Shown piece by piece: positions 45,283 through 56,316 of a stretch of 64,000 bases of DNA (position 1 is the stretch's first letter; each line of letters begins with the position of its first letter). Made by a program: the position numbers and the translations under genes. Below the pieces are notes generated by a model. That model had not been told where the DNA came from. It did not search any database and was given only the letters and a program-made list of their open reading frames with translations. Source of the stretch: an uncultured Christensenella sp. (GTDB lineage Bacteria > Bacillota > Clostridia > Christensenellales > UBA1242); NCBI GenBank assembly GCA_949294455.1, contig CASFHD010000001.1, positions 76,215 through 140,214 on the forward strand, read 5' to 3'.

Positions 45283-48200
45283 ATGAAAAAGAAAATTTTT
45301 ATTTGGGTCTTTGCATTGGCTATGATATTACCTAGTGCTATCATTTTGAGTGCTTGCGGTGGAAAGAAAAAAACTCCACAAATAACTGAAACAGGTATAA
45401 CCATTTATATTGATGAAAAAGAAGTAACCAATGAATTTAACACAATAGAAATTTTTTACGGCGATTATGAAAATACCGCCGAAATGATAAGTACTAAATT
45501 ATCTGTAATAGTAAATTATAGTGATAATACTTCTAGCAATGTAGTTTATGGAGATGGTGGATTTACAGTTTCTGGTCTGCCTCAAAATTTGAATGCTAAC
45601 GAACAAGGCTATAATCTTACCTTAAACTATAAAAATTTCAATGAAAATTTAAAACTTATTATACATAAGGCAACTATAGATTTTCAGTATGTTGGTTGGA
45701 GTTATGATGATTCTGATCCATTTACTTATGATGGGGAAGAAAAAACTATTGAGTTAGTAAATGTTCCAAATCTTGTTGAAGTTTCTTATGAACATAATAT
45801 AAAAGAAAATGCTGGAACATACAATGCAACTGCTATTATTGAGTATGATGAGAGTAATTATAACATAATAAATGACGAAGATTTAATTTTATCTCAACAA
45901 TGGACTATAAATAAAGCACAAATTGACATGTGGTCAGTAAATTGGGATTATTCTACCTCACAACCATATACTTATGATGGAACGCAAAAAGAAGTAAAAC
46001 TAATGAATTTGCCAGAAGTCATTACCGTAAGTTATGAAAATAACACTGCTACGAATTCGGGTAATTATTCAGCAATAGCAACATTAAACTATGATACGGC
46101 AAACTATGAATTAATTAACAAAAATTTTGATGATACAATAAATTGGGAAATAAACAAACAAAAAGTAAATACACCTACCCAAAAAGGTGGCAGATTGTTT
46201 TACAATGGTCAAGAGCAGTCAGGAGTTAATTACAACATAGAAGATAGCAACAATTTATTTACAGTTAACGGAACAATAAGTTCTACTAATGCAGGTCAAT
46301 ATTCTGTAACATTTACATTAATTGATACAACAAACTATGAATGGGATGATAGTACTATTAACAATATTATCATAGAATGGGAAATTGAAAAAGTTCCACT
46401 TTATTTTAGTGGCACAAGTTGGGATTATAACACTTACGAACCATTTACCTATGACGGAGAAGAAAAAACAGTTGCGGTTATAAATCTTCCAGAAGGTGTA
46501 ACTATTAAAAACTATACAGGAACAACATCAGAAACAAATGCTGGAACTTACACGGCAGGTGTTGAGTTTAATTATGATGATGTAAACTATTATCTTTCAG
46601 GTGAGCCACAAGAACTTGAGTGGAAAATTGAAAAAGCTCAAAACACAATAACTGGCACGTTGGTTTTTGAAGGTAAAACTTACGGCGAAGCACTTGGCGA
46701 ACCTAGCGGAGTGACAGCATCACATGGAGATATAACTTATAAATATTATAATAGTGAGTATACGGAAATTTCTAAACCCACAAATGTTGGAACTTATTAT
46801 GTAAAGGGTTTCTCTGTTGGCGACAACAACTGGATAGCCCAAGAAACTGAATTTAAACAATTCTTTATTTCAAGGAAATATATTGCTGACCCAGAATTAG
46901 TTAGAAATAGTTTTATTCATACGGGAACTGCTTTTACACCAGAATTAGCTGAGGAAATTGATGAAAGTATAATTCAAATGTCTGGCGATTTAACAAAAAC
47001 AGACATCGGCGATTACACTATCACATTTACACTAAAAGATAAAACAAATTATGGCTGGCTGAGTGAATATAACACAGCAAATGAAACTAATGATATTACA
47101 TTAAATTGGAGCATTATTGACAGTCCTTTAACTATGACATTGAATAATAAAGCTCTTTCTGCAAGCGAATTTGAAGCTCGTACACAAGTAGAGATTGGCG
47201 ACAAATGGCAAGTTTCTGTCAGTGAAGGTTATAATTATAGTTTAGACTATGAGTATTTAAACGAAAGTGGCAATAAAGTATGGTCATATAATACTGACGA
47301 AGGACGTTACGGCAATTTAACAGTCAATCCATCACATCTTACTTATGTAATCGAAATCACACAAAGTGCGGAAGTTGTTTACACAAAAACAATAACTGTA
47401 AATCACGACATCTTTGAAAATGTTATGGTTGGCGACACAGAAATGACCTTTGACGAGTTTGTCGCAAATCCTTCAGTTGAATACGGCAAAAATTTAAAAT
47501 TTAACTTAAAAACAGAGTATGAGGATATATTTACTTTTAGTCAAAACAATTTCACAATAACTGAAGACACGATTATAACTATAAATTATCAATTAATAGG
47601 TACTAGAGTTTATAAAACAATTAATGTAGTATGCGTATTCGACCCCATAGAAAATATAACAATAAATTCACAAACTCTTTCTTACGAAGAATTTATTGCT
47701 AATCCATTAGTTAAATATGGAGATGAACTATCTATAAATTTTAAATCTAATTATGATGGATTCTACACATATTTCTCATTCCCTTATATTGTAAAAGATG
47801 ACGTCGAAATTACTATTTACACTCCTACAGGAGAAACCTTTGAAACCATTAATGTGAATTGTCGAATTAATGTATTAAGCAATATTTTAATAGATGGCGA
47901 AAGTGTGTCTTATGAAGAATTTTTGCAAATGGAATCTATACATTTAGGTAGCACTTTAACTTTCACTGTTAATGAAGAATTTGCAGACATTATTCAAGTT
48001 TCAACTTATAATAATGGTCAAAAAGTTGTTTTAACAGGTCAACAAACATATACATTTAACGAAGTGGGCAGTTGGCAGTTAAATATTAGAGAAACAGAGA
48101 CTCAAAATTATATTGATGATATATTTTTAATTGTTGTTTTATTTGATAGTATTGAAATTAATGATAAAACTTTTGACATATCTTCTTCAACTTCTGTGGA

Positions 48201-50355
48201 ATATGGTAGAGATTTAGGAGAAAGCACTTTTGAAATTTCATTTGATAGCAATTTGCTTAACGAATATGATTTATACTATGAAATGAATTCTTCTAAGATC
48301 AAACTAACTCAATCAACCTTTGAAGTTTCAATAGATGAAAATGAAGAATATGCTTATGCTTATATTTATGCGTATATAAATGACGAGTATTTGCAAGTTT
48401 TATCAATTAGTTTTACAAGTTTTTGCCCTGTTGAAATGGTATCAATGCAAGTTTATCAACAAAATTATATAGATAATCCACAATATAACATTTACAATAA
48501 TGAAATAAGTATAACAAGTAATGGGGTTATTAATAGTTTAAATCTAACATATAAAGATGGTTATACTGATTGCACATATAAAATTTTTGATGAAAGTGGG
48601 GCTGAAATTCAAGATTTCACAACCATTAAAAACGCAACATATACCATTAAAATTTATTCTAATAACAGCGAAATATATTCATTCTTATTTAAAGTTAAAT
48701 ACCAATTTGATAATTTGATTAATGGTATGCAAAATTTAGGAGATAAAAATGTTGCTTTAATTATTGCAAATGAAGGCACTTTAAATGTTCCAAGTTTAAC
48801 CGACACCCATTACTATACCAACCAAACTATGACGTTTAATGATAGTAGTTCAGTGACATTAACAGATGGTCAACAAACAATTGAGGTGGTTTACACTTTC
48901 ACAGCAAATGAAAAAACTTACACCTACACATTCGATTTAATAGCAGAGTATGTTCCGCAAGAAGAAAGTCCAATACATTATGTAACAAATATAACTGTAA
49001 ATTATACGGATATATGGGGAAATTCTTATGAAGTTAGTTTTGATAACAATTTGCAATATTCAGATGGATCGTATAGTTTATCAGATATAGCATTTGTTGA
49101 AGAAGATAATATTGAAATTACTTCTAATTATACAGTTACTTCAAAAGAAATAAAATTTACTGATGATAAAACATCTTGCTGGTTAGAATATACAATTTCC
49201 ATTGATGGGCAATATAAAACTTTTAGAGCTTATATTAAAACTTATGGAACAATATCAAACAATACTAATGCTCAAATAATATTTTCAGATGCTAAAACAG
49301 AACTTGACATTACTGATTTAATTATTAATAATTCTTACACTATTGAAAAAGTTAATGTTTTTGGGGATATAGACATAATTTTAGAAGATGAAAATGCAAG
49401 AATTGAGTATTATTTCAATGGCGAAATTATTGATAGATACAATTTTGAATTAAATTCAATTGGAACTTATACAGTAAAAATATTTTCATCAGACAACACT
49501 GCAACAAGGTCCATAAATATTATAGTTCAAGACTATGAAAGCTTAATGTTTGAAGTTTTCTATGAAGGTGAAAGACTTTATCTTGAATATTCTGATGCTG
49601 GTCCATTAGGCAATATGACAATGAAATATGACGAACTAACAGGTCCTTACTTTATTGGTTATTTCGGTGAAGCAAATTTAACTGGAACGCAAGTTACCAT
49701 TTCTGGAAACACTGCTTATGAAGAAATGTTGTATTGTTCAGACAAAGTTACACCTATAACAAATCTTGATAATCTTGTGCTAGATATAATGACCGACACA
49801 GATGGCACATTAACTGGAATTGTTGGTGGCAAATATGTGTTAGTATATGCCAAAATTGAAGGTATAGATTTTGCAGTGTATTTCATATTTGAAGATAGAC
49901 CGCCATATCCTATGACATTCTGTTTTGACACAGATAATGATAACGAAATAACTGAAAACGACACGCAAATTAGTTTAAAAGTTGATTTAGATGAACTTGG
50001 AACAGGCATTATGGATTTGGGAGATTTCTATATTGGAGAAAGTGGTCCAAGTGTTGAAGTAACAAGAGAAGAACTTGGAATGGCTGAAACCGAAACAACT
50101 GTTAGTGCAACTGTAAATTGGTTATCAACTTTTGAAGATTATAGTTATCAATGTTTTATAGATTTACCAGAAGGGCAAGAAATGCCTGAATTAATAGGTC
50201 CAAGTGAAGAAACTTTGAGTGCAGAAATAACATTAGATTTTGAAGATGCCGGAAATGGCACATACACAGCTAAAATATATGTTTGTACTGAAGGCACTAC
50301 ATTAGAAACATTTAAGGATTTAACGGTGTTAGTAACTTTTATATTGATTAATTAA
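45283..50355 (+). CDS. Large (1,690 aa) surface lipoprotein with MBG (YGX-type)-like repeats and a second repeat family
   Basis: Lipoprotein signal MKKKIFIWVFALAMILPSAIILSAC. About 6 repeats of the type W.Y....P(F/Y)TYDG..K.V.L.NLP..V...Y.....NAGTY.A......D..NY. GGAGG RBS. Confidence 0.8.
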   Translation: MKKKIFIWVFALAMILPSAIILSACGGKKKTPQITETGITIYIDEKEVTNEFNTIEIFYGDYENTAEMISTKLSVIVNYSDNTSSNVVYGDGGFTVSGLPQNLNANEQGYNLTLNYKNFNENLKLIIHKATIDFQYVGWSYDDSDPFTYDGEEKTIELVNVPNLVEVSYEHNIKENAGTYNATAIIEYDESNYNIINDEDLILSQQWTINKAQIDMWSVNWDYSTSQPYTYDGTQKEVKLMNLPEVITVSYENNTATNSGNYSAIATLNYDTANYELINKNFDDTINWEINKQKVNTPTQKGGRLFYNGQEQSGVNYNIEDSNNLFTVNGTISSTNAGQYSVTFTLIDTTNYEWDDSTINNIIIEWEIEKVPLYFSGTSWDYNTYEPFTYDGEEKTVAVINLPEGVTIKNYTGTTSETNAGTYTAGVEFNYDDVNYYLSGEPQELEWKIEKAQNTITGTLVFEGKTYGEALGEPSGVTASHGDITYKYYNSEYTEISKPTNVGTYYVKGFSVGDNNWIAQETEFKQFFISRKYIADPELVRNSFIHTGTAFTPELAEEIDESIIQMSGDLTKTDIGDYTITFTLKDKTNYGWLSEYNTANETNDITLNWSIIDSPLTMTLNNKALSASEFEARTQVEIGDKWQVSVSEGYNYSLDYEYLNESGNKVWSYNTDEGRYGNLTVNPSHLTYVIEITQSAEVVYTKTITVNHDIFENVMVGDTEMTFDEFVANPSVEYGKNLKFNLKTEYEDIFTFSQNNFTITEDTIITINYQLIGTRVYKTINVVCVFDPIENITINSQTLSYEEFIANPLVKYGDELSINFKSNYDGFYTYFSFPYIVKDDVEITIYTPTGETFETINVNCRINVLSNILIDGESVSYEEFLQMESIHLGSTLTFTVNEEFADIIQVSTYNNGQKVVLTGQQTYTFNEVGSWQLNIRETETQNYIDDIFLIVVLFDSIEINDKTFDISSSTSVEYGRDLGESTFEISFDSNLLNEYDLYYEMNSSKIKLTQSTFEVSIDENEEYAYAYIYAYINDEYLQVLSISFTSFCPVEMVSMQVYQQNYIDNPQYNIYNNEISITSNGVINSLNLTYKDGYTDCTYKIFDESGAEIQDFTTIKNATYTIKIYSNNSEIYSFLFKVKYQFDNLINGMQNLGDKNVALIIANEGTLNVPSLTDTHYYTNQTMTFNDSSSVTLTDGQQTIEVVYTFTANEKTYTYTFDLIAEYVPQEESPIHYVTNITVNYTDIWGNSYEVSFDNNLQYSDGSYSLSDIAFVEEDNIEITSNYTVTSKEIKFTDDKTSCWLEYTISIDGQYKTFRAYIKTYGTISNNTNAQIIFSDAKTELDITDLIINNSYTIEKVNVFGDIDIILEDENARIEYYFNGEIIDRYNFELNSIGTYTVKIFSSDNTATRSINIIVQDYESLMFEVFYEGERLYLEYSDAGPLGNMTMKYDELTGPYFIGYFGEANLTGTQVTISGNTAYEEMLYCSDKVTPITNLDNLVLDIMTDTDGTLTGIVGGKYVLVYAKIEGIDFAVYFIFEDRPPYPMTFCFDTDNDNEITENDTQISLKVDLDELGTGIMDLGDFYIGESGPSVEVTREELGMAETETTVSATVNWLSTFEDYSYQCFIDLPEGQEMPELIGPSEETLSAEITLDFEDAGNGTYTAKIYVCTEGTTLETFKDLTVLVTFILIN

Positions 50356-52597: not shown

Positions 52598-52859
52598 TTT
52601 GTCCAGCACAAAAATTGGATTTTGCTCTGCCCACTAAAACCCTTTAAAACACTAGCAAATAAGCTGGTGTTTTTTCTTTTGATGTCAAAATGTCAATTCC
52701 TTGACGCCATTTGACAATTATGCTTAATTTATCCAATGACACTATCTACCTAAGTCGATTTTGTATTGTCTAAAACTATGTGAATTTGTTTAAGTTTTTA
52801 TAATTTAAAATCATTATTTTGATATAATCTTTTACAAAAAAAGACAAAGTTTCGAAACT

Positions 52860-52913
52860 TTCCCCCGAAAAATCTCCATTTTCTAAAAATATTCCCCCGA
52901 AAAATCTCCATTT
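52860..52913 (+). promoter_or_regulatory. Two perfect 22-bp direct repeats (32-bp period) abutting the ATPase promoter
   Basis: TTCCCCCGAAAAATCTCCATTT occurs at 52860..52881 and 52892..52913. Confidence 0.6.
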
Positions 52914-52916
52914 AAA

Positions 52917-52944
52917 TTGACTTTTGTAATTTCAATGATATAAA
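52917..52944 (+). promoter_or_regulatory. Sigma-A-type promoter of the AAA ATPase gene
   Basis: TTGACT (52917..52922), a 16-nt spacer, then TGATATAAA (extended -10, TATAAA at 52939..52944). AGGAG RBS at about 52958. Confidence 0.5.
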
Positions 52945-52968
52945 ATATTAAAAAATAAGGAGAGAAAT

Positions 52969-54264
52969 ATGTTAAAAAGAGAAATTGAAACCAAGCTTAT
53001 AGAATGGAAAAATAAAACTGATAAAAAATGTTTGATAATTAGTGGAGCAAGGCAAGTTGGGAAAACATATATAGTTGAAAAATTTGCAAAAGATAATTAT
53101 GAGCATTTTGTAGAAATAAATTTTGTTGAAAATCCAACTGCAAAAAAGATATTTGATGGTGATTTGGATATTACAACAATTCTTGCAAATATTTCTCTTT
53201 ATTTACCAGAGCAATCAAATTTAATACCAAATAAAACTTTAATATTTTTTGATGAGATACAAGCTTGTCCAAATGCAAGAACTGCATTGAAATTTTTTGC
53301 AATAGATAAAAGATTTGATGTTATTGCTTCTGGATCACTTTTAGGTATTAACTATGAAAAGGTTTCTTCATATCCAACAGGTTATGTTGAATTTTTAGAA
53401 ATGAATCCACTTTCATTTAAAGAATTTCTTTGGGCAAATGGAATTGATGAAAATGTTGTTTCAATAATAAAAAGTTGTTTTGAAAATAAAAGTGTTGTAA
53501 ATAAAGCAATGAACTTAAAATTGTTAGAATATTTTAAGCAATATATTGTTGTTGGGGGAATGCCTAATGTTGTTAACACATTTGTTAATAATCATAATTT
53601 TGAAGAAGTTTTAAATTTACAAAAAAACATTTTAATTGATTATAAAAATGACATAGCAAAGTATGCTTATTCAACAGAAAAGGTAAAAGCAAAAGCTTGT
53701 TTTGAAAGCATACCAGCTCAACTAGCAAAAGAAAACAAAAAATTTATGTATAGTACATTTGATAAAAATGGGAAAAGTCAAAAGTATTCAGGTAGTATAA
53801 ATTGGTTAATAGATGCAGGAATTGTTAACATTTGCAATAATGTAACGTCTCTTGATTTGCCGTTAATAGCATACAGAGAAGAAAATTACTTTAAACTTTA
53901 TATGGCAGATACTGGACTTCTTGTTGCTATGTTAGATGACGGAACAAATGCTCAAATAATGGAAGGAAATCTTGGAATTTATAAAGGGGCAATATTTGAA
54001 AATATTATTGCTCAAATATTACATACAAATGGAAATAAATTATATTTTTATAATAGGAATAATACATTAGAAATAGACTTTGTTTTATCAAAAAATGCAA
54101 AAATTACACCAATTGAAGTAAAAGCCAATAACAATAAAGCGAAATCATTATCAACCATTTTAAAAACAAATCCAGATATGAAAGGAATTAAATTAGTAAA
54201 TGGAAATGTAGGGGAAGTTGACAATATGTTGACCTTACCATTATATATGGCAATGTTTTTGTAA
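52969..54264 (+). CDS. AAA-family ATPase (AAA_14 + DUF4143 architecture)
   Basis: Walker A ISGARQVGKTY and Walker B LIFFDEIQ. The C-terminal segment IEVKANNNKA is typical of the DUF4143 restriction-endonuclease-like fold. Confidence 0.85.
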   Translation: MLKREIETKLIEWKNKTDKKCLIISGARQVGKTYIVEKFAKDNYEHFVEINFVENPTAKKIFDGDLDITTILANISLYLPEQSNLIPNKTLIFFDEIQACPNARTALKFFAIDKRFDVIASGSLLGINYEKVSSYPTGYVEFLEMNPLSFKEFLWANGIDENVVSIIKSCFENKSVVNKAMNLKLLEYFKQYIVVGGMPNVVNTFVNNHNFEEVLNLQKNILIDYKNDIAKYAYSTEKVKAKACFESIPAQLAKENKKFMYSTFDKNGKSQKYSGSINWLIDAGIVNICNNVTSLDLPLIAYREENYFKLYMADTGLLVAMLDDGTNAQIMEGNLGIYKGAIFENIIAQILHTNGNKLYFYNRNNTLEIDFVLSKNAKITPIEVKANNNKAKSLSTILKTNPDMKGIKLVNGNVGEVDNMLTLPLYMAMFL

Positions 54265-54279
54265 TGATAAAAAGAAAAA

Positions 54280-54307
54280 GACAATGAAAATAATCATTGC
54301 CTTTTTA
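54280..54307. terminator. Bidirectional hairpin between the convergent ATPase and XRE genes
   Basis: GACAATGA-AAATAA-TCATTGCC (one mismatch) followed by TTTTT. Confidence 0.4.
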
Positions 54308-54310
54308 TAT

Positions 54311-54553
54311 TTAATAAAAATTTAGATTTTCGAGCTTAAAAACATCATCGTCAAAAAATTCTTCTAGTGTCATATTAAAAGCACTTGCAACTTTGCAGAT
54401 GGTTGAAAATTTTACATCGGTATTTACTTCATTAAAAATGTATCTAAGTGCAGAGTGTGTTAAACCACTCTCTTTTTCTAATTTATATTTTGACATATTG
54501 TTTTTGATTAATAAATTGCTTATTCTCAAAGCAAAAGCTTTATTTAGTGTCAT
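54311..54553 (-). CDS. XRE-family HTH regulator (80 aa)
   Basis: HTH_3 pattern NNMSKYKLEKESGLTHSALRYIFNE and a MTLEEFF tail. Confidence 0.75.
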   Translation of the reverse strand: MTLNKAFALRISNLLIKNNMSKYKLEKESGLTHSALRYIFNEVNTDVKFSTICKVASAFNMTLEEFFDDDVFKLENLNFY

Positions 54554-54570
54554 AATATTAACTCCTTTAC

Positions 54571-54810
54571 TCAGTAAACATCTTCTGAACCGTTAAAATA
54601 ATCTCGTGCAAAAAATTCTGCAAGTGTGATATTTGCACCTAAACAAATTTTCTTAATTGTAATAACTTTGGGGCATTTGCTTTTACCTGACATAAAATCA
54701 AAAATAGTTGATGGTGTTAAATTTGAATTTAAACATAATGCAGTTAAAGTTGTTTTGTTTATTTCTACTATCTCATTTATTCTTTTTCTAATTGCTTCAT
54801 CAATATTCAT
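54571..54810 (-). CDS. XRE-family HTH regulator (79 aa), paralogue of the downstream gene
   Basis: HTH pattern LTALCLNSNLTPSTIFDFMSG and an ITLAEFF tail. Divergent from the DUF1273 gene. Confidence 0.75.
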   Translation of the reverse strand: MNIDEAIRKRINEIVEINKTTLTALCLNSNLTPSTIFDFMSGKSKCPKVITIKKICLGANITLAEFFARDYFNGSEDVY

Positions 54811-54822
54811 AATTACTATACT

Positions 54823-54939
54823 ACGTAACGATATTCCGTAATTATTTTACTTTTTTGAGCATATTTAGTCTTACGGAGTTTCGTAATAATGTTTGCCATA
54901 AATATGAAATTTTATTATAATATTGACGGAGTTTCGTAA
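54823..54939. promoter_or_regulatory. Three related operator-like sites (TTACGGA-N3-TCGTAA) in the divergent XRE/DUF1273 intergenic region
   Basis: ACGGAGTTTCGTAA occurs at 54873..54886 and 54926..54939 (perfect direct repeat). An inverted, degenerate copy (TTACGGAATATCGTTACG on the minus strand) lies at 54823..54840. Confidence 0.55.
54893..54921 (+). promoter_or_regulatory. Sigma-A-type promoter of the DUF1273 / T5orf172 / (hsdR) transcription unit
   Basis: TTGCCA (54893..54898), a 17-nt spacer, then TATAAT (54916..54921). Operator copy 2 overlaps the predicted start site. Confidence 0.5.
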
Positions 54940-54941
54940 AT

Positions 54942-55496
54942 ATGCAAAATAAGGTTTGTTGTTTTATTGGTCATAGAAAAATTGACTTAACAAAAGAATT
55001 AGAAGAAAAAACTAGAAATATCATTGAAGACATGATTATCAATAAAGAAGTCAAAACATTTTTGTTTGGTAGTAAAAGCGAATTTGATAGCCTTTGCCAT
55101 AAAATAGTAACTGATTTAAAAGATAAGTATCCATATATTAAACGAGTAGTATACACTTGTAAAAGTGAAGGGTGCACACTTGAAAGTGAAAGAAAAAAAT
55201 GGGAACAAATTTATTTTAACTTATATAAAGAAAAAATTGATTTACTTTGTGTTGATGAAGAATTTGAACATAAAACAAAATACACATCAGGTAAAGCGAG
55301 TTATGTAGAAAGAAATCAAGCAATGATAGATAATAGTGACTATTGCATTTTTTACTATAACGAGAACTATAAACCGCAGCCCCGAAAACAATCAAAACGA
55401 GACATTACTTATTATCAGCCAAAATCAGGCACATCTCTTGCCTATAAATATGCTCAAAAAAAGAAAAAGGAAATAATCAACATTTTTGTTTTATAA
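54942..55496 (+). CDS. SLOG-superfamily DUF1273 (YpsA/YoqJ-like) protein
   Basis: N-terminus VCCFIGHRKI, FGSKSEFDSLCHKIV, VERNQAMIDNSDYCIFYY and SGTSLAYKYA follow the DUF1273 pattern. Confidence 0.75.
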   Translation: MQNKVCCFIGHRKIDLTKELEEKTRNIIEDMIINKEVKTFLFGSKSEFDSLCHKIVTDLKDKYPYIKRVVYTCKSEGCTLESERKKWEQIYFNLYKEKIDLLCVDEEFEHKTKYTSGKASYVERNQAMIDNSDYCIFYYNENYKPQPRKQSKRDITYYQPKSGTSLAYKYAQKKKKEIINIFVL

Positions 55497-55583
55497 TTTT
55501 ATACAAAAATAAAAAATATATGCTATAATGAAATTAATTAACTTCCAATAATAAGAAATTATGGGAACATTAAGGAGTTTTTT

Positions 55584-56270
55584 ATGTCCAGAGGTATAAT
55601 TTATGTTTGCTCTACAGCTGTTGAAGGTTTAATTAAAATTGGTAGAACTAATGATTTTCAAAAAAGGATGAAACTTTTAGAAGATAATGGATATAGAAAT
55701 GTTACTGGTTTAAAAAGACAATTCGCTATTGAAGTAGATAATCATGAGGAAATAGAACAACTTTTAGATGATTTATTTGCCAAAAGCAGAGTGGGGAACA
55801 CGGAATTATTTTCGTTAGATTTAAACAAAATAATTCAATTATTATCATCTTTTGCTGGCAAACAAGTTTATCCAACAAATGAAACGAAGCAAGAAGTATT
55901 TAGCAATGCAACAGAAATAATACATATCAAAATGGTACCTGATGGAGAATATTTTTTATCTAGAAAGATTAAAGAAATAAATCAAACAGTAAAAGCAGAA
56001 ATGTTTGTTGAAAATGGAAAATTTATTCTTAAAAAAGGTTCAACTATTGCGCCATATAAAGAATATAAAAATCCATCTTGGATAGCAGTGAGAAAAGATA
56101 TGAAGTTAGACCATAATGGTGGTTTATTGAATGATGTTGAATGTTCTTCTCCATCAATGGCGGCAGCTTTGGTTGTAGGGCAATCTGCAAATGGTTGGAC
56201 AAGTTGGAAAAATGCAAACAATCAGTTAATTGATATATATCGTCAAAACGATATTAATGAGGATTTATAA
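55584..56270 (+). CDS. T5orf172 (GIY-YIG-like) domain protein with a C-terminal DUF4357-like domain
   Basis: N-terminus GIIYVCSTAVEGLIKIGRTNDFQKRMKLL ... NTELFSLD. C-terminus SPSMAAALVVGQSANGWTSWKN. AGGAG RBS. Ends 46 nt upstream of hsdR. Confidence 0.7.
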   Translation: MSRGIIYVCSTAVEGLIKIGRTNDFQKRMKLLEDNGYRNVTGLKRQFAIEVDNHEEIEQLLDDLFAKSRVGNTELFSLDLNKIIQLLSSFAGKQVYPTNETKQEVFSNATEIIHIKMVPDGEYFLSRKIKEINQTVKAEMFVENGKFILKKGSTIAPYKEYKNPSWIAVRKDMKLDHNGGLLNDVECSSPSMAAALVVGQSANGWTSWKNANNQLIDIYRQNDINEDL

Positions 56271-56316
56271 ATTAAAAATCCTTAATTTAAAACATTAAAG
56301 ATTTAGGGAGTTTGAT

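Follow-up and report, generated by a model that had tools for sequence, protein, structure and literature searches.

Two genes at the head of a Type I restriction operon in an uncultured Christensenella sp. probably belong to different modules of a chromosomal defence islet

Two co-oriented genes that precede a Type I restriction-modification (R-M) operon raise the question of whether they form one defence system with each other and with the R-M enzyme or are neighbours by position. Here, we address this question for a stretch of 64,000 nucleotides (the window) from an uncultured Christensenella sp. (positions 76,215 to 140,214 of contig CASFHD010000001.1, assembly GCA_949294455.1), in which a gene for a SLOG protein (gene 1) and a gene for a fusion of a T5orf172 and a DUF4357 domain (gene 2) lie immediately upstream of hsdR. 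The nearest public relative is an uncultured human-gut Clostridiales metagenome-assembled genome. An initial annotation of the window had proposed that the two genes constitute a sensor/effector module linked to the R-M genes and transcribed from one XRE-controlled promoter. Based on open reading frame (ORF) calls, the gene arrangement that it described is exact: the two genes are on the same strand, 87 nt separate gene 1 from gene 2, 46 nt separate gene 2 from hsdR, and hsdR, hsdM, and hsdS are all present and co-oriented downstream, with the hsdS 3' of hsdM in two overlapping ORFs. Rather than one module, we favor, with a probability of roughly 0.7, a chromosomal defence islet that starts at ~52.9 kb and comprises the PDC-S01 gene, a unit of the genes xreA-xreB and the divergent SLOG gene, a unit of the promoter P2 and the PDC-S57 nuclease gene (gene 2), and a phase-variable Type I locus; genes 1 and 2 would thus lie in different modules, and these modules, arranged head to tail, would be independently exchangeable.

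Gene 2 is maintained in loci from which most or all of gene 1 has been lost. We surveyed gene 2 loci (referred to here by L numbers) with a single-protein query over genome contigs, which mostly returned close relatives and matches to DUF4357 only. The closest relative, L001, is 98.4% identical to the window over 55232-61478, and its hsdR, hsdS, and hsdM are full length and 99% identical to those of the window; however, the homology starts in the middle of the SLOG gene. Amino acids (aa) 100-184 are the sole remnant of the SLOG protein in L001, L021, and L023, and in L001 and L021, the two of these loci for which the sequence was read, the remnants have an in-frame TGA and a common breakpoint. 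L020, L022, L024, and L025 share nothing but 55411-56275 with the window, a block that runs from 85 nt before the end of the SLOG gene through the intergenic region and gene 2 to 5 nt past the gene 2 stop codon. The ratio of nonsynonymous to synonymous substitution rates (dN/dS) of gene 2 is ~0.10 in all comparisons, whatever the state of the SLOG gene, and intact SLOG genes have a dN/dS of 0.15-0.22. In L020, L022, L024, L025, L003, L032, and L034, gene 2 is 87-92% identical to that of the window and is followed not by hsdRSM but by genes for a Type II methylase and a Type IIG restriction-methylase of ~1,300-1,400 aa (in L020, 1396 aa; PADLOC E = 1e-274).

Gene 2 also has a promoter-like site of its own. 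P2 is located in the gap between genes 1 and 2 and is 100% identical in the window, L001, L021, and L032. In L021, P2 is located 5' of an inserted helicase gene, and the segment 55484-55533 recurs in front of gene 2. The 46-nt gap between gene 2 and hsdR contains no terminator and no promoter-like site, and P2 is likely the promoter of both gene 2 and the hsd operon. Control by an XRE-regulated promoter, which had been proposed for both genes, is upheld in part: the operator-flanked promoter-like site P1 precedes gene 1, and P2 lies between gene 1 and gene 2. Because gene 2 remains intact, with a dN/dS of ~0.1, where the SLOG gene is truncated or stop bearing, and because gene 2 has its own conserved P2 while the constant partner of the SLOG gene is an XRE gene, we argue that genes 1 and 2 are not one module. 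Their adjacency is ancestral in this lineage and is probably positional rather than functional.

The region of P2 is also the site of an insertion in two relatives. In L021 (3733-8693) and L023, the SLOG remnant and gene 2 are separated by an inserted gene for a 1279-aa UvrD/RQC/HRDC helicase, which is GajB-like in PADLOC. This gene is bracketed in L021 by both copies of the P2 segment (window 55484-55533), and the same pair of homology blocks is present in L023. This arrangement suggests that the helicase cassette was inserted by recombination at the P2 promoter.

More distant homologues of gene 2 (44-74% identity) occur in mixed contexts. They follow a Type IIG operon (L122), Type III mod/res genes (L123 and L124), Type I genes and a DUF4268 gene (L125), or a helicase gene, two genes for EcoRI-type methylases, and GmrSD (L030); in L026, the homologue is alone, with the nearest methylase gene 6 kb off on the other strand, and in two Veillonella loci (L005 and L006), it lies among the housekeeping genes dnaK-dnaJ-prmA-rsmE. 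Proteins related to gene 2 through the DUF4357 domain are likewise found at restriction loci: a 281-aa DUF4357-family protein is encoded between mod and res of a Type III locus (L009), a protein that shares the DUF4357 domain alone with gene 2 is encoded after a Type I locus (L010), and a stand-alone 116-aa DUF4357 domain is encoded between hsdM and hsdS (L102). Among the ~10 distinct types of gene 2 and DUF4357 loci, an intact SLOG gene is adjacent in two.

The constant partner of the SLOG gene is a divergent XRE regulator gene and not gene 2. An xreB homologue is located immediately upstream of, and divergent from, the SLOG gene in L032-L036, L048, L049, and L059. L033 and L035, with SLOG genes 89% and 93% identical to gene 1, have both the 80-aa and the 79-aa XRE genes in this position, while in L032, L034, and L036, in which the contig ends there, the gene for the 79-aa XRE protein alone is visible. 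The two XRE proteins of the window are paralogs with 31% identity. A divergent XRE gene is also found beside the 61-67%-identical SLOG homologues of L037-L041, L048, L049, L059, and L130-L138 and is present in every close-clade SLOG locus examined; moreover, HTH_26 (in 21) and HTH_3 (in 19) are the most frequent families in a non-redundant set of 80 upstream neighbours of SLOG homologues. The order differs in L106-L109, where the SLOG gene is followed by an XRE gene (HTH_26) and hsdM.

The regulatory layout is conserved together with the genes. With up to one mismatch allowed, four of the five matches to the palindrome TTACG-N6-CGTAA in the 64-kb window lie in the 130-bp divergent region, while 0.94 are expected window-wide. 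The palindromes bracket the P1 promoter (TTGCCA-17-TATAAT), and the last of them overlaps the GGAG ribosome-binding site of the SLOG gene. Among loci with SLOG genes of 61-93% identity, the operator positions are kept at three sites in L035, L036, L048, and L059 and at two in L049, and P1 is conserved in the same five loci; in other SLOG clades, different palindromes surround the same -10 element. We conclude that a conserved repressor-operator-SLOG unit exists within variable DNA. In L032-L034, a 53-bp deletion between two TTACG-N6-CGTAA operators removes P1 and leaves the SLOG ORF intact; P1 was lost by operator-operator recombination in these loci, which may carry a natural "off" allele of the SLOG gene.

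Several loci show what else can border this unit. In L035, AbiLi/AbiLii genes (AAA_21 and RloB) at 825-2751 are located directly upstream of the XRE-SLOG unit, whose SLOG gene is 93% identical to gene 1, and defence genes can lie on both flanks of the unit. In L130-L132 (SLOG ~67% identical), the unit adjoins a set of genes for TnpV, an HTH_17 excisionase-like protein, and a tyrosine integrase, and some copies may ride on, or flank, an integrative element.

Downstream of the SLOG gene, the cargo changes even between nearly identical copies. SLOG genes 88-93% identical to gene 1 are followed by gene 2 and Type I genes (the window), by gene 2 and a Type IIG gene, by GmrSD and hsdM (L035 and L036), directly by hsdM-hsdS-hsdR of another family, or by an ABC transporter; throughout this close clade, the cargo shares the strand of the SLOG gene and starts 59-98 nt 3' of it. 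The 67%-identical SLOG gene of L049 is followed by genes for a TPR protein and an RnlA-like protein. The upstream flank varies as well among the 88-93%-identical copies, with PDC-S01 in the window, AbiL in L035, or an acetyltransferase. Among 132 non-redundant downstream neighbours of SLOG homologues, the most frequent families are Methylase_S (13), Eco57I (6), N6_Mtase (5), HsdM_N (5), and ResIII (4), and the rest are heterogeneous housekeeping genes.

To count independent cases, SLOG genes were clustered at 80% identity, which gave 20 informative clusters plus four further contexts without Type I genes, i.e., 24 in total. In four of the 20 clusters, Type I genes occur within positions +1 to +4, always on the same strand, compared with one of 18 upstream; because the four added contexts contain housekeeping genes only, the downstream count becomes four of 24. 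At a background of 2%, the binomial P value is ~1e-3; this background of 1-2% is our own rough estimate and not a measured figure. Thus, Type I genes are moderately enriched downstream of SLOG genes, and the enrichment, ~ten-fold or more over the rough 1-2% estimate, is real but partial. Conversely, in 21 of the 24 clusters, none of the next four genes downstream encodes a DUF4357 domain, and in most loci, the XRE-SLOG unit occurs without gene 2, often amid housekeeping genes. These distributions bear on the proposal of a sensor/effector module in two ways. Each family is separately linked to restriction loci, as had been supposed, with DUF4357 proteins beside Type I, IIG, and III systems and SLOG genes 5' of Type I genes in four of 24 clusters. 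The two distributions are, however, independent: a DUF4357 gene is missing from the majority of SLOG loci, an intact SLOG gene is missing from the majority of gene 2 loci, and an obligate co-occurrence of the pair does not hold in either direction. The label "sensor/effector" for the gene pair was tempting but is unsupported, and it has now been removed.

The identification of gene 1 as a YpsA-like SLOG protein was upheld. Its match to Pfam YpsA (PF06908) is barely over the threshold (29.3 bits versus a cut-off of 27.7; E = 1e-6), and it contains an FIGHRK ("GHR") motif. The PDB entry that best matches an AlphaFold model based on 42 homologues (predicted local distance difference test score [pLDDT], 84) is that of Bacillus subtilis YpsA (2NX2; E = 1.1e-7; TM-score, 0.58-0.60), followed by DprA, the SLOG domain of ThsA, MCP, LOG, and TRPM. 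Because the fold of the model confirms the call beyond the marginal Pfam score, we consider the predicted SLOG assignment sound. Both gene 1 and YpsA are stand-alone proteins of ~180 aa; however, they share 15% identity, the GYK that follows strand 1 in YpsA is GHR in gene 1, and the presumed acidic position of GxD/E varies in the gene 1 family. In this family, the FLFGS-S-F motif is invariant, while positions 47 and 49 vary between D, E, N, and Q, in a tentative register relative to G53 and E55 of YpsA. The context differs too, with gene 1 paired with divergent XRE genes and operators. According to the YpsA literature, conserved gene coupling to gpsB is a mark of YpsA proper, the division-linked branch in Firmicutes; a gpsB-like gene does not adjoin the SLOG gene in the window or in any related locus. 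In a search for fusions among 1.8 billion cluster representatives, the best 150 matches were all 85-257 aa, which is consistent with this SLOG subfamily consisting of stand-alone proteins. Phage and plasmid collections contain distant SLOG homologues alone (26-33% identity), and the idea that the close clade is borne by phages or plasmids was rejected as there are no close homologues in the cultured phage and plasmid collections.

For gene 2, both parts of the domain assignment are above the Pfam thresholds, i.e., T5orf172 at aa 4-88 (39.7 bits versus 20) and DUF4357 (PF14267) at aa 181-214 (50.4 bits versus 38.4), and the peptide quoted in its support, SPSMAAALVVGQSANGWTSWKN, is present. The match to RAMA (PF18755), at 23.1 bits, is below the threshold of 35.2, and precomputed RAMA matches exist for several close homologues. 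The model of gene 2 (pLDDT, 91) matches viral T5orf172 proteins in BFVD by Foldseek with E ~1e-4 and a root-mean-square deviation of 2-3 Å over ~90 residues. In the PDB, a Foldseek search with the full-length model gave nothing significant, the best relevant match being Slx1 (probability, 0.57), and a profile search of PDB sequences gave no match. Among 44 homologues, K18-I-G20, R28, and E74 of the nuclease domain are invariant and Y7 is present in at least 90%; an invariant K18 replaces the second Tyr of the GIY-YIG set, in a residue register that we take to correspond to that of I-TevI. In the C-terminal part, S191, G199, N203-G-W205, W208, and R220 are invariant. Gene 2 thus keeps the GIY-YIG-type catalytic set Arg28/Glu74 plus a near-invariant Tyr, and we predict that it is a nuclease. 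Odn of phage ICP1, an active T5orf172 nuclease, retains the equivalent Arg and Glu.

Gene 2 is also less novel than had been assumed. Neither gene had been expected to be called by PADLOC; gene 1 indeed has no match in PADLOC or NCBIfam, and gene 2, which has no match among NCBIfam models either, matches PADLOC PDC-S57 (PDLC05040) over its full length (E = 5.4e-87, 289.5 bits, aa 1-222 versus 1-227 of 229). The 145 PDC families are candidates proposed by "guilt-by-embedding" in Type I, BREX, or DISARM loci (Payne et al. 2024); a full-text search, which included the text of the preprint by Payne et al., found the name PDC-S57 in no paper. Iyer, Zhang and Aravind (2016) named RAMA for its fusions to N6-adenine methylases and nucleases, including T5orf172 and GIY-YIG (URI), predicted that it discriminates N6-methyladenine (m6A), and described RAMA-nuclease fusions as restriction endonucleases of N6A-modifying systems. 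GIY-YIG-RAMA fusions have been flagged as possible Type IV enzymes that depend on m6A (6mA) (Helbrecht et al. 2024), and some GmrSD and McrB proteins likewise contain a fused DUF4357 domain. The statement that the pair has no described function therefore holds for gene 2 in part, since it belongs to an existing candidate family and to architectures described with a predicted role. Based on its sequence, gene 2 is a further member of the PDC-S57 candidate family and of the T5orf172-RAMA fusion class. It matches PDC-S57 end to end, with nothing in its sequence to set it apart, and is located at a Type I locus like the founding members; however, it heads the operon with its own promoter rather than being nested between hsd genes. 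It shares with the RAMA-nuclease fusions the combination of T5orf172/GIY-YIG with a RAMA-type domain and the location beside genes for N6-adenine methylases, but its C-terminus passes the threshold of DUF4357 and not that of RAMA, and for the prokaryotic fusions, m6A reading and cleavage are predicted activities. Like GmrSD and single-chain Type IV enzymes, gene 2 combines a stand-alone nuclease and a DNA-reader module in restriction islands, and GmrSD fills the slot of gene 2 after the SLOG gene in L035 and L036; in contrast to these enzymes, its nuclease is GIY-YIG-type and not His-Me/ParB, it has no NTPase, and its dependence on modification is a prediction.

Because of its stand-alone copies, its indifference to the R-M type, and the presence of GmrSD in the same slot, an autonomous, reader-guided nuclease is the most economical explanation for gene 2. 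According to this model, gene 2 would act as a second, Type IV-like restriction layer in which foreign DNA with methylated adenine (or another modification) is bound by the RAMA-type domain and cleaved by the T5orf172 domain, and this layer would cover phages that escape the Type I enzyme through their own methylation. Because there is no terminator or promoter-like site in the 46-nt gap, P2 would also drive transcription of hsdR-hsdS-hsdM. In the neighboring module, the position and conservation of the TTACG-N6-CGTAA operators suggest that the divergent XRE proteins bind them and hold the SLOG gene repressed. With low confidence, we speculate that the derepressed SLOG protein could bind or process a nucleotide (NAD/ADP-ribose or an adenine nucleotide) and slow growth; XRE-SLOG would then resemble a toxin/antitoxin or abortive-infection unit. 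The further idea that XRE-SLOG is an uncatalogued autonomous conflict module, with a tightly repressed YpsA-like effector that binds or processes nucleotides and arrests growth or degrades a signal, and at the same time a hotspot for swaps of restriction cassettes at promoter-level junctions, is a tentative one that we consider possible, with the odds against it. In a bolder variant, the SLOG protein might act on N6-methyl-adenine nucleotides, because LOG-type SLOG enzymes cleave N6-modified AMP, and this would link it to the neighboring adenine methylases and RAMA readers.

Several points weigh against this interpretation of the islet. Genes 1 and 2 are not separated by a terminator; transcription from P1 could therefore read through into gene 2 and hsdR, and the two genes may be coupled to some degree in their regulation. 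Three of the four SLOG clusters adjacent to Type I genes carry a DUF4357-domain gene, in three different architectures, and this could hint at a three-way link in a sample that is too small to interpret. PDC-S57 is a candidate family by virtue of genomic embedding alone. A nuclease with a generic dependence on m6A and the adjacent adenine methylases would appear to be incompatible, unless the nuclease recognizes a context or density of methylation that is foreign to the host. Divergent transcription is atypical of type II toxin-antitoxin pairs, and the idea of a toxic SLOG effector draws on an analogy to the overexpression of YpsA in B. subtilis, on the regulatory layout, and on repeated inactivation. 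Finally, a preference of RAMA for m6A was not confirmed for the one RAMA protein studied (Helbrecht et al. 2024).

We weighed these modules against other explanations of the locus. It is very unlikely that a SLOG sensor and a T5orf172-DUF4357 effector are one two-gene system tied to the Type I enzyme: their shared strand, the 87 nt between them without a terminator, the ancestral adjacency with SLOG 3' remnants that still accompany gene 2, and the DUF4357-domain gene in three of the four SLOG clusters adjoining Type I genes speak for it, as does the independent case of L048, in which a 64%-identical SLOG gene overlaps a GIY-YIG-DUF4357 gene by 19 nt and hsdM-hsdS follow; however, gene 2 is intact and purifying selection acts on it in loci with a SLOG pseudogene or no SLOG gene, it has the conserved P2, the two genes are rarely neighbors in the clusters and locus types counted above, and GmrSD, not gene 2, comes next even after SLOG genes with 93% identity. 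A role of XRE and SLOG as the controller of the downstream restriction cargo, with SLOG as a ligand-sensing co-factor, would explain why the cargo of the close clade is always on the same strand at a short distance, without a terminator after the SLOG gene in the window, and it would fit the operator-rich switch region, the gene order in L106-L109, and the excess of Type I genes downstream (4/20) over upstream (1/18). Such a controller would resemble C proteins of R-M systems, which likewise combine small XRE helix-turn-helix proteins and palindromic operators with restriction genes. Here, though, the XRE genes are divergent from, and chiefly linked to, the SLOG gene and not an endonuclease gene, and the unit also exists without any R-M system: most XRE-SLOG units are surrounded by housekeeping genes and have nothing to control, P2 is an independent promoter of the cargo, and relatives with a truncated SLOG gene and no XRE gene have Type I systems. 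We therefore regard this role as doubtful, and as somewhat less plausible than the view that gene 1 is an ordinary YpsA-like regulator of division or stress whose restriction neighbors reflect an adjacent insertion hotspot. For such a regulator, which we still consider unlikely, argue the many SLOG homologues among housekeeping genes, the absence of a PADLOC match for gene 1, and the fact that YpsA in Bacillus has a role in division and oxidative stress, with overexpression phenotypes in B. subtilis. It is at odds with the missing gpsB synteny, with the repeated truncation of the SLOG gene or its loss of a promoter, with the ~ten-fold or higher frequency of Type I genes downstream relative to our rough background estimate, and with the variation of both flanks among 88-93%-identical copies (AbiL, PDC-S01, or an acetyltransferase upstream); because both flanks vary, the XRE-SLOG unit is itself part of the variable DNA.

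For gene 2, the main alternative is that it is an auxiliary, methylation-sensitive nuclease whose RAMA-type domain reads the m6A of the host as "self", such that unmethylated DNA is attacked in concert with the Type I, IIG, or III enzyme or at a step after it. Every partner system includes an N6-adenine methylase (Type I, Eco57I-type Type IIG, Type III, and EcoRI-type methylases), gene 2 is co-oriented with its partner system as the first or last gene, the DUF4357 proteins of L102 and L009 are encoded between hsdM and hsdS and between mod and res, respectively, and the role that Iyer et al. assigned to RAMA-nuclease fusions is of this kind. Nevertheless, a 92%-identical gene 2 serves a Type I and a Type IIG enzyme, which necessarily have different targets, and it therefore does not read a system-specific site; moreover, the homologues in Veillonella and in L026 have no methylase gene nearby. 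On balance, we find this alternative unlikely. Highly improbable is a guard function like that of PrrC, in which the R-M complex would hold gene 2 inactive until a phage anti-restriction protein frees it. PrrC is an ABC-ATPase and anticodon-nuclease protein nested in the hsd operon. Genes 1 and 2 resemble PrrC and the Rlo proteins in being extra genes attached to a Type I locus, an embedding that defines the context of PrrC and the PDC candidates alike, and RloB/AbiL-type genes are present in the sister locus L035. However, Pfam and PADLOC reveal no ATPase or sensor domain in gene 2 and no similarity to PrrC, and the genes share no sequence or domain similarity with the PrrC/Rlo proteins; they are also located outside the hsd genes, upstream of hsdR, and the partners of gene 2 are not confined to Type I but span four R-M types, with stand-alone copies in addition.

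The sister loci are a concrete example of how a defence islet is rebuilt, with restriction cassettes exchanged behind a conserved, portable promoter. Gene 2 is a compact 228-aa member of a candidate family, with the prediction that it is a reader-guided nuclease, possibly dependent on 6mA. The XRE-SLOG unit, which is absent from the defence catalogues, is the less-described part and a modestly novel lead; should it prove to be defensive or toxin-like, a branch of the YpsA family that is widespread in gut Clostridia would thereby gain a function.

The features of the islet are listed in Table 1. The gene for the AAA_14-DUF4143 ATPase at its left edge is a candidate for a third, independent defence gene of the islet; in L001, the interval 52788-55232 that contains it is replaced by unrelated sequence with small genes, of which one has a weak nSTAND3 match, one a DUF3800 match, and one no assignment. 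Farther upstream, the neighbors are chromosomal housekeeping genes (PheS, the spore-germination genes GerA/B/C, and MscS). As the upstream region consists of such genes and contains no tRNA gene, we rejected the possibility that the region is a mobile element. A 1690-aa ORF at 45283-50355, with no Pfam match at E ≤ 0.001, is located between the housekeeping genes and the islet, and no Rfam RNA family was found at 50-64 kb of the window.

Table 1. Positions in the window of the genes and regulatory sites of the islet
Feature	Position	Strand	Basis
AAA_14-DUF4143 ATPase gene, PDC-S01; separate module at the left edge of the islet	52969-54264	+	Pfam AAA_14 and DUF4143; PADLOC E = 1.6e-160
xreA, XRE-family helix-turn-helix protein (HTH_26/HTH_3), 80 aa	54311-54553	-	Pfam; present with the SLOG gene in L033 and L035
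xreB, XRE-like protein, 79 aa, divergent from the SLOG gene	54571-54810	-	Weak Pfam HTH_3 match
Four TTACG-N6-CGTAA palindromes, putative XRE operators	54813-54939 (54813-54828, 54826-54841, 54871-54886, 54924-54939)	.	Clustered; positions conserved
P1, promoter-like site for the SLOG gene	54893-54921	+	TTGCCA-17-TATAAT, 11/12, between operators
Gene 1, stand-alone YpsA-like SLOG protein, 184 aa	54942-55496	+	Pfam YpsA; fold match
P2, promoter-like site with TG-extended -10	55500-55529	+	TATACA-18-TGCTATAAT, in the gap between genes 1 and 2
Gene 2, T5orf172 (GIY-YIG superfamily) and DUF4357/RAMA-type domain, 228 aa	55584-56270	+	Pfam; PADLOC PDC-S57
hsdR, Type I restriction subunit	56317-59118	+	Pfam HSDR_N, SWI2_SNF2/ResIII, T1R_D3, EcoR124_C; TIGR00348; PADLOC REase_I E = 2e-199
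Half-size hsdS, single target-recognition domain, 202 aa	59209-59817	+	PADLOC Specificity_I; weak Pfam Methylase_S
hsdM, N6-adenine methyltransferase	59817-61385	+	Pfam N6_Mtase E = 8e-112, HsdM_N; PADLOC MTase_I
hsdS as two overlapping ORFs (61387-62079, 62018-62581)	61387-62581	+	Methylase_S matches on both
Inverted, promoter-distal hsdS copy	62574-63719	-	ORF call; profile match

The Type I specificity locus (59209-63740) contains, in addition to the half-size hsdS between hsdR and hsdM, the split hsdS, and the inverted hsdS copy, two pairs of inverted repeats in the hsdS region, one of 82 nt (61971-62052/63189-63270) and one of 41 nt (61460-61500/63660-63700), and this layout suggests that the locus is phase variable. 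Up to the end of the window at 64000, no recombinase gene is visible. In L108, a gene for a 329-aa tyrosine recombinase is located amid the hsdS copies; at this position, an equally long ORF occurs in L106, L107, and L109. A perfect 19-nt inverted repeat, CAAATCTCAAATTAGGAAC/GTTCCTAATTTGAGATTTG, with 23 nt between its arms, spans the start of the inverted hsdS at 63680-63740, and the sequence of one arm recurs at 61459-61478, where the active hsdS has its 5' end; this repeat could be a recombination site.

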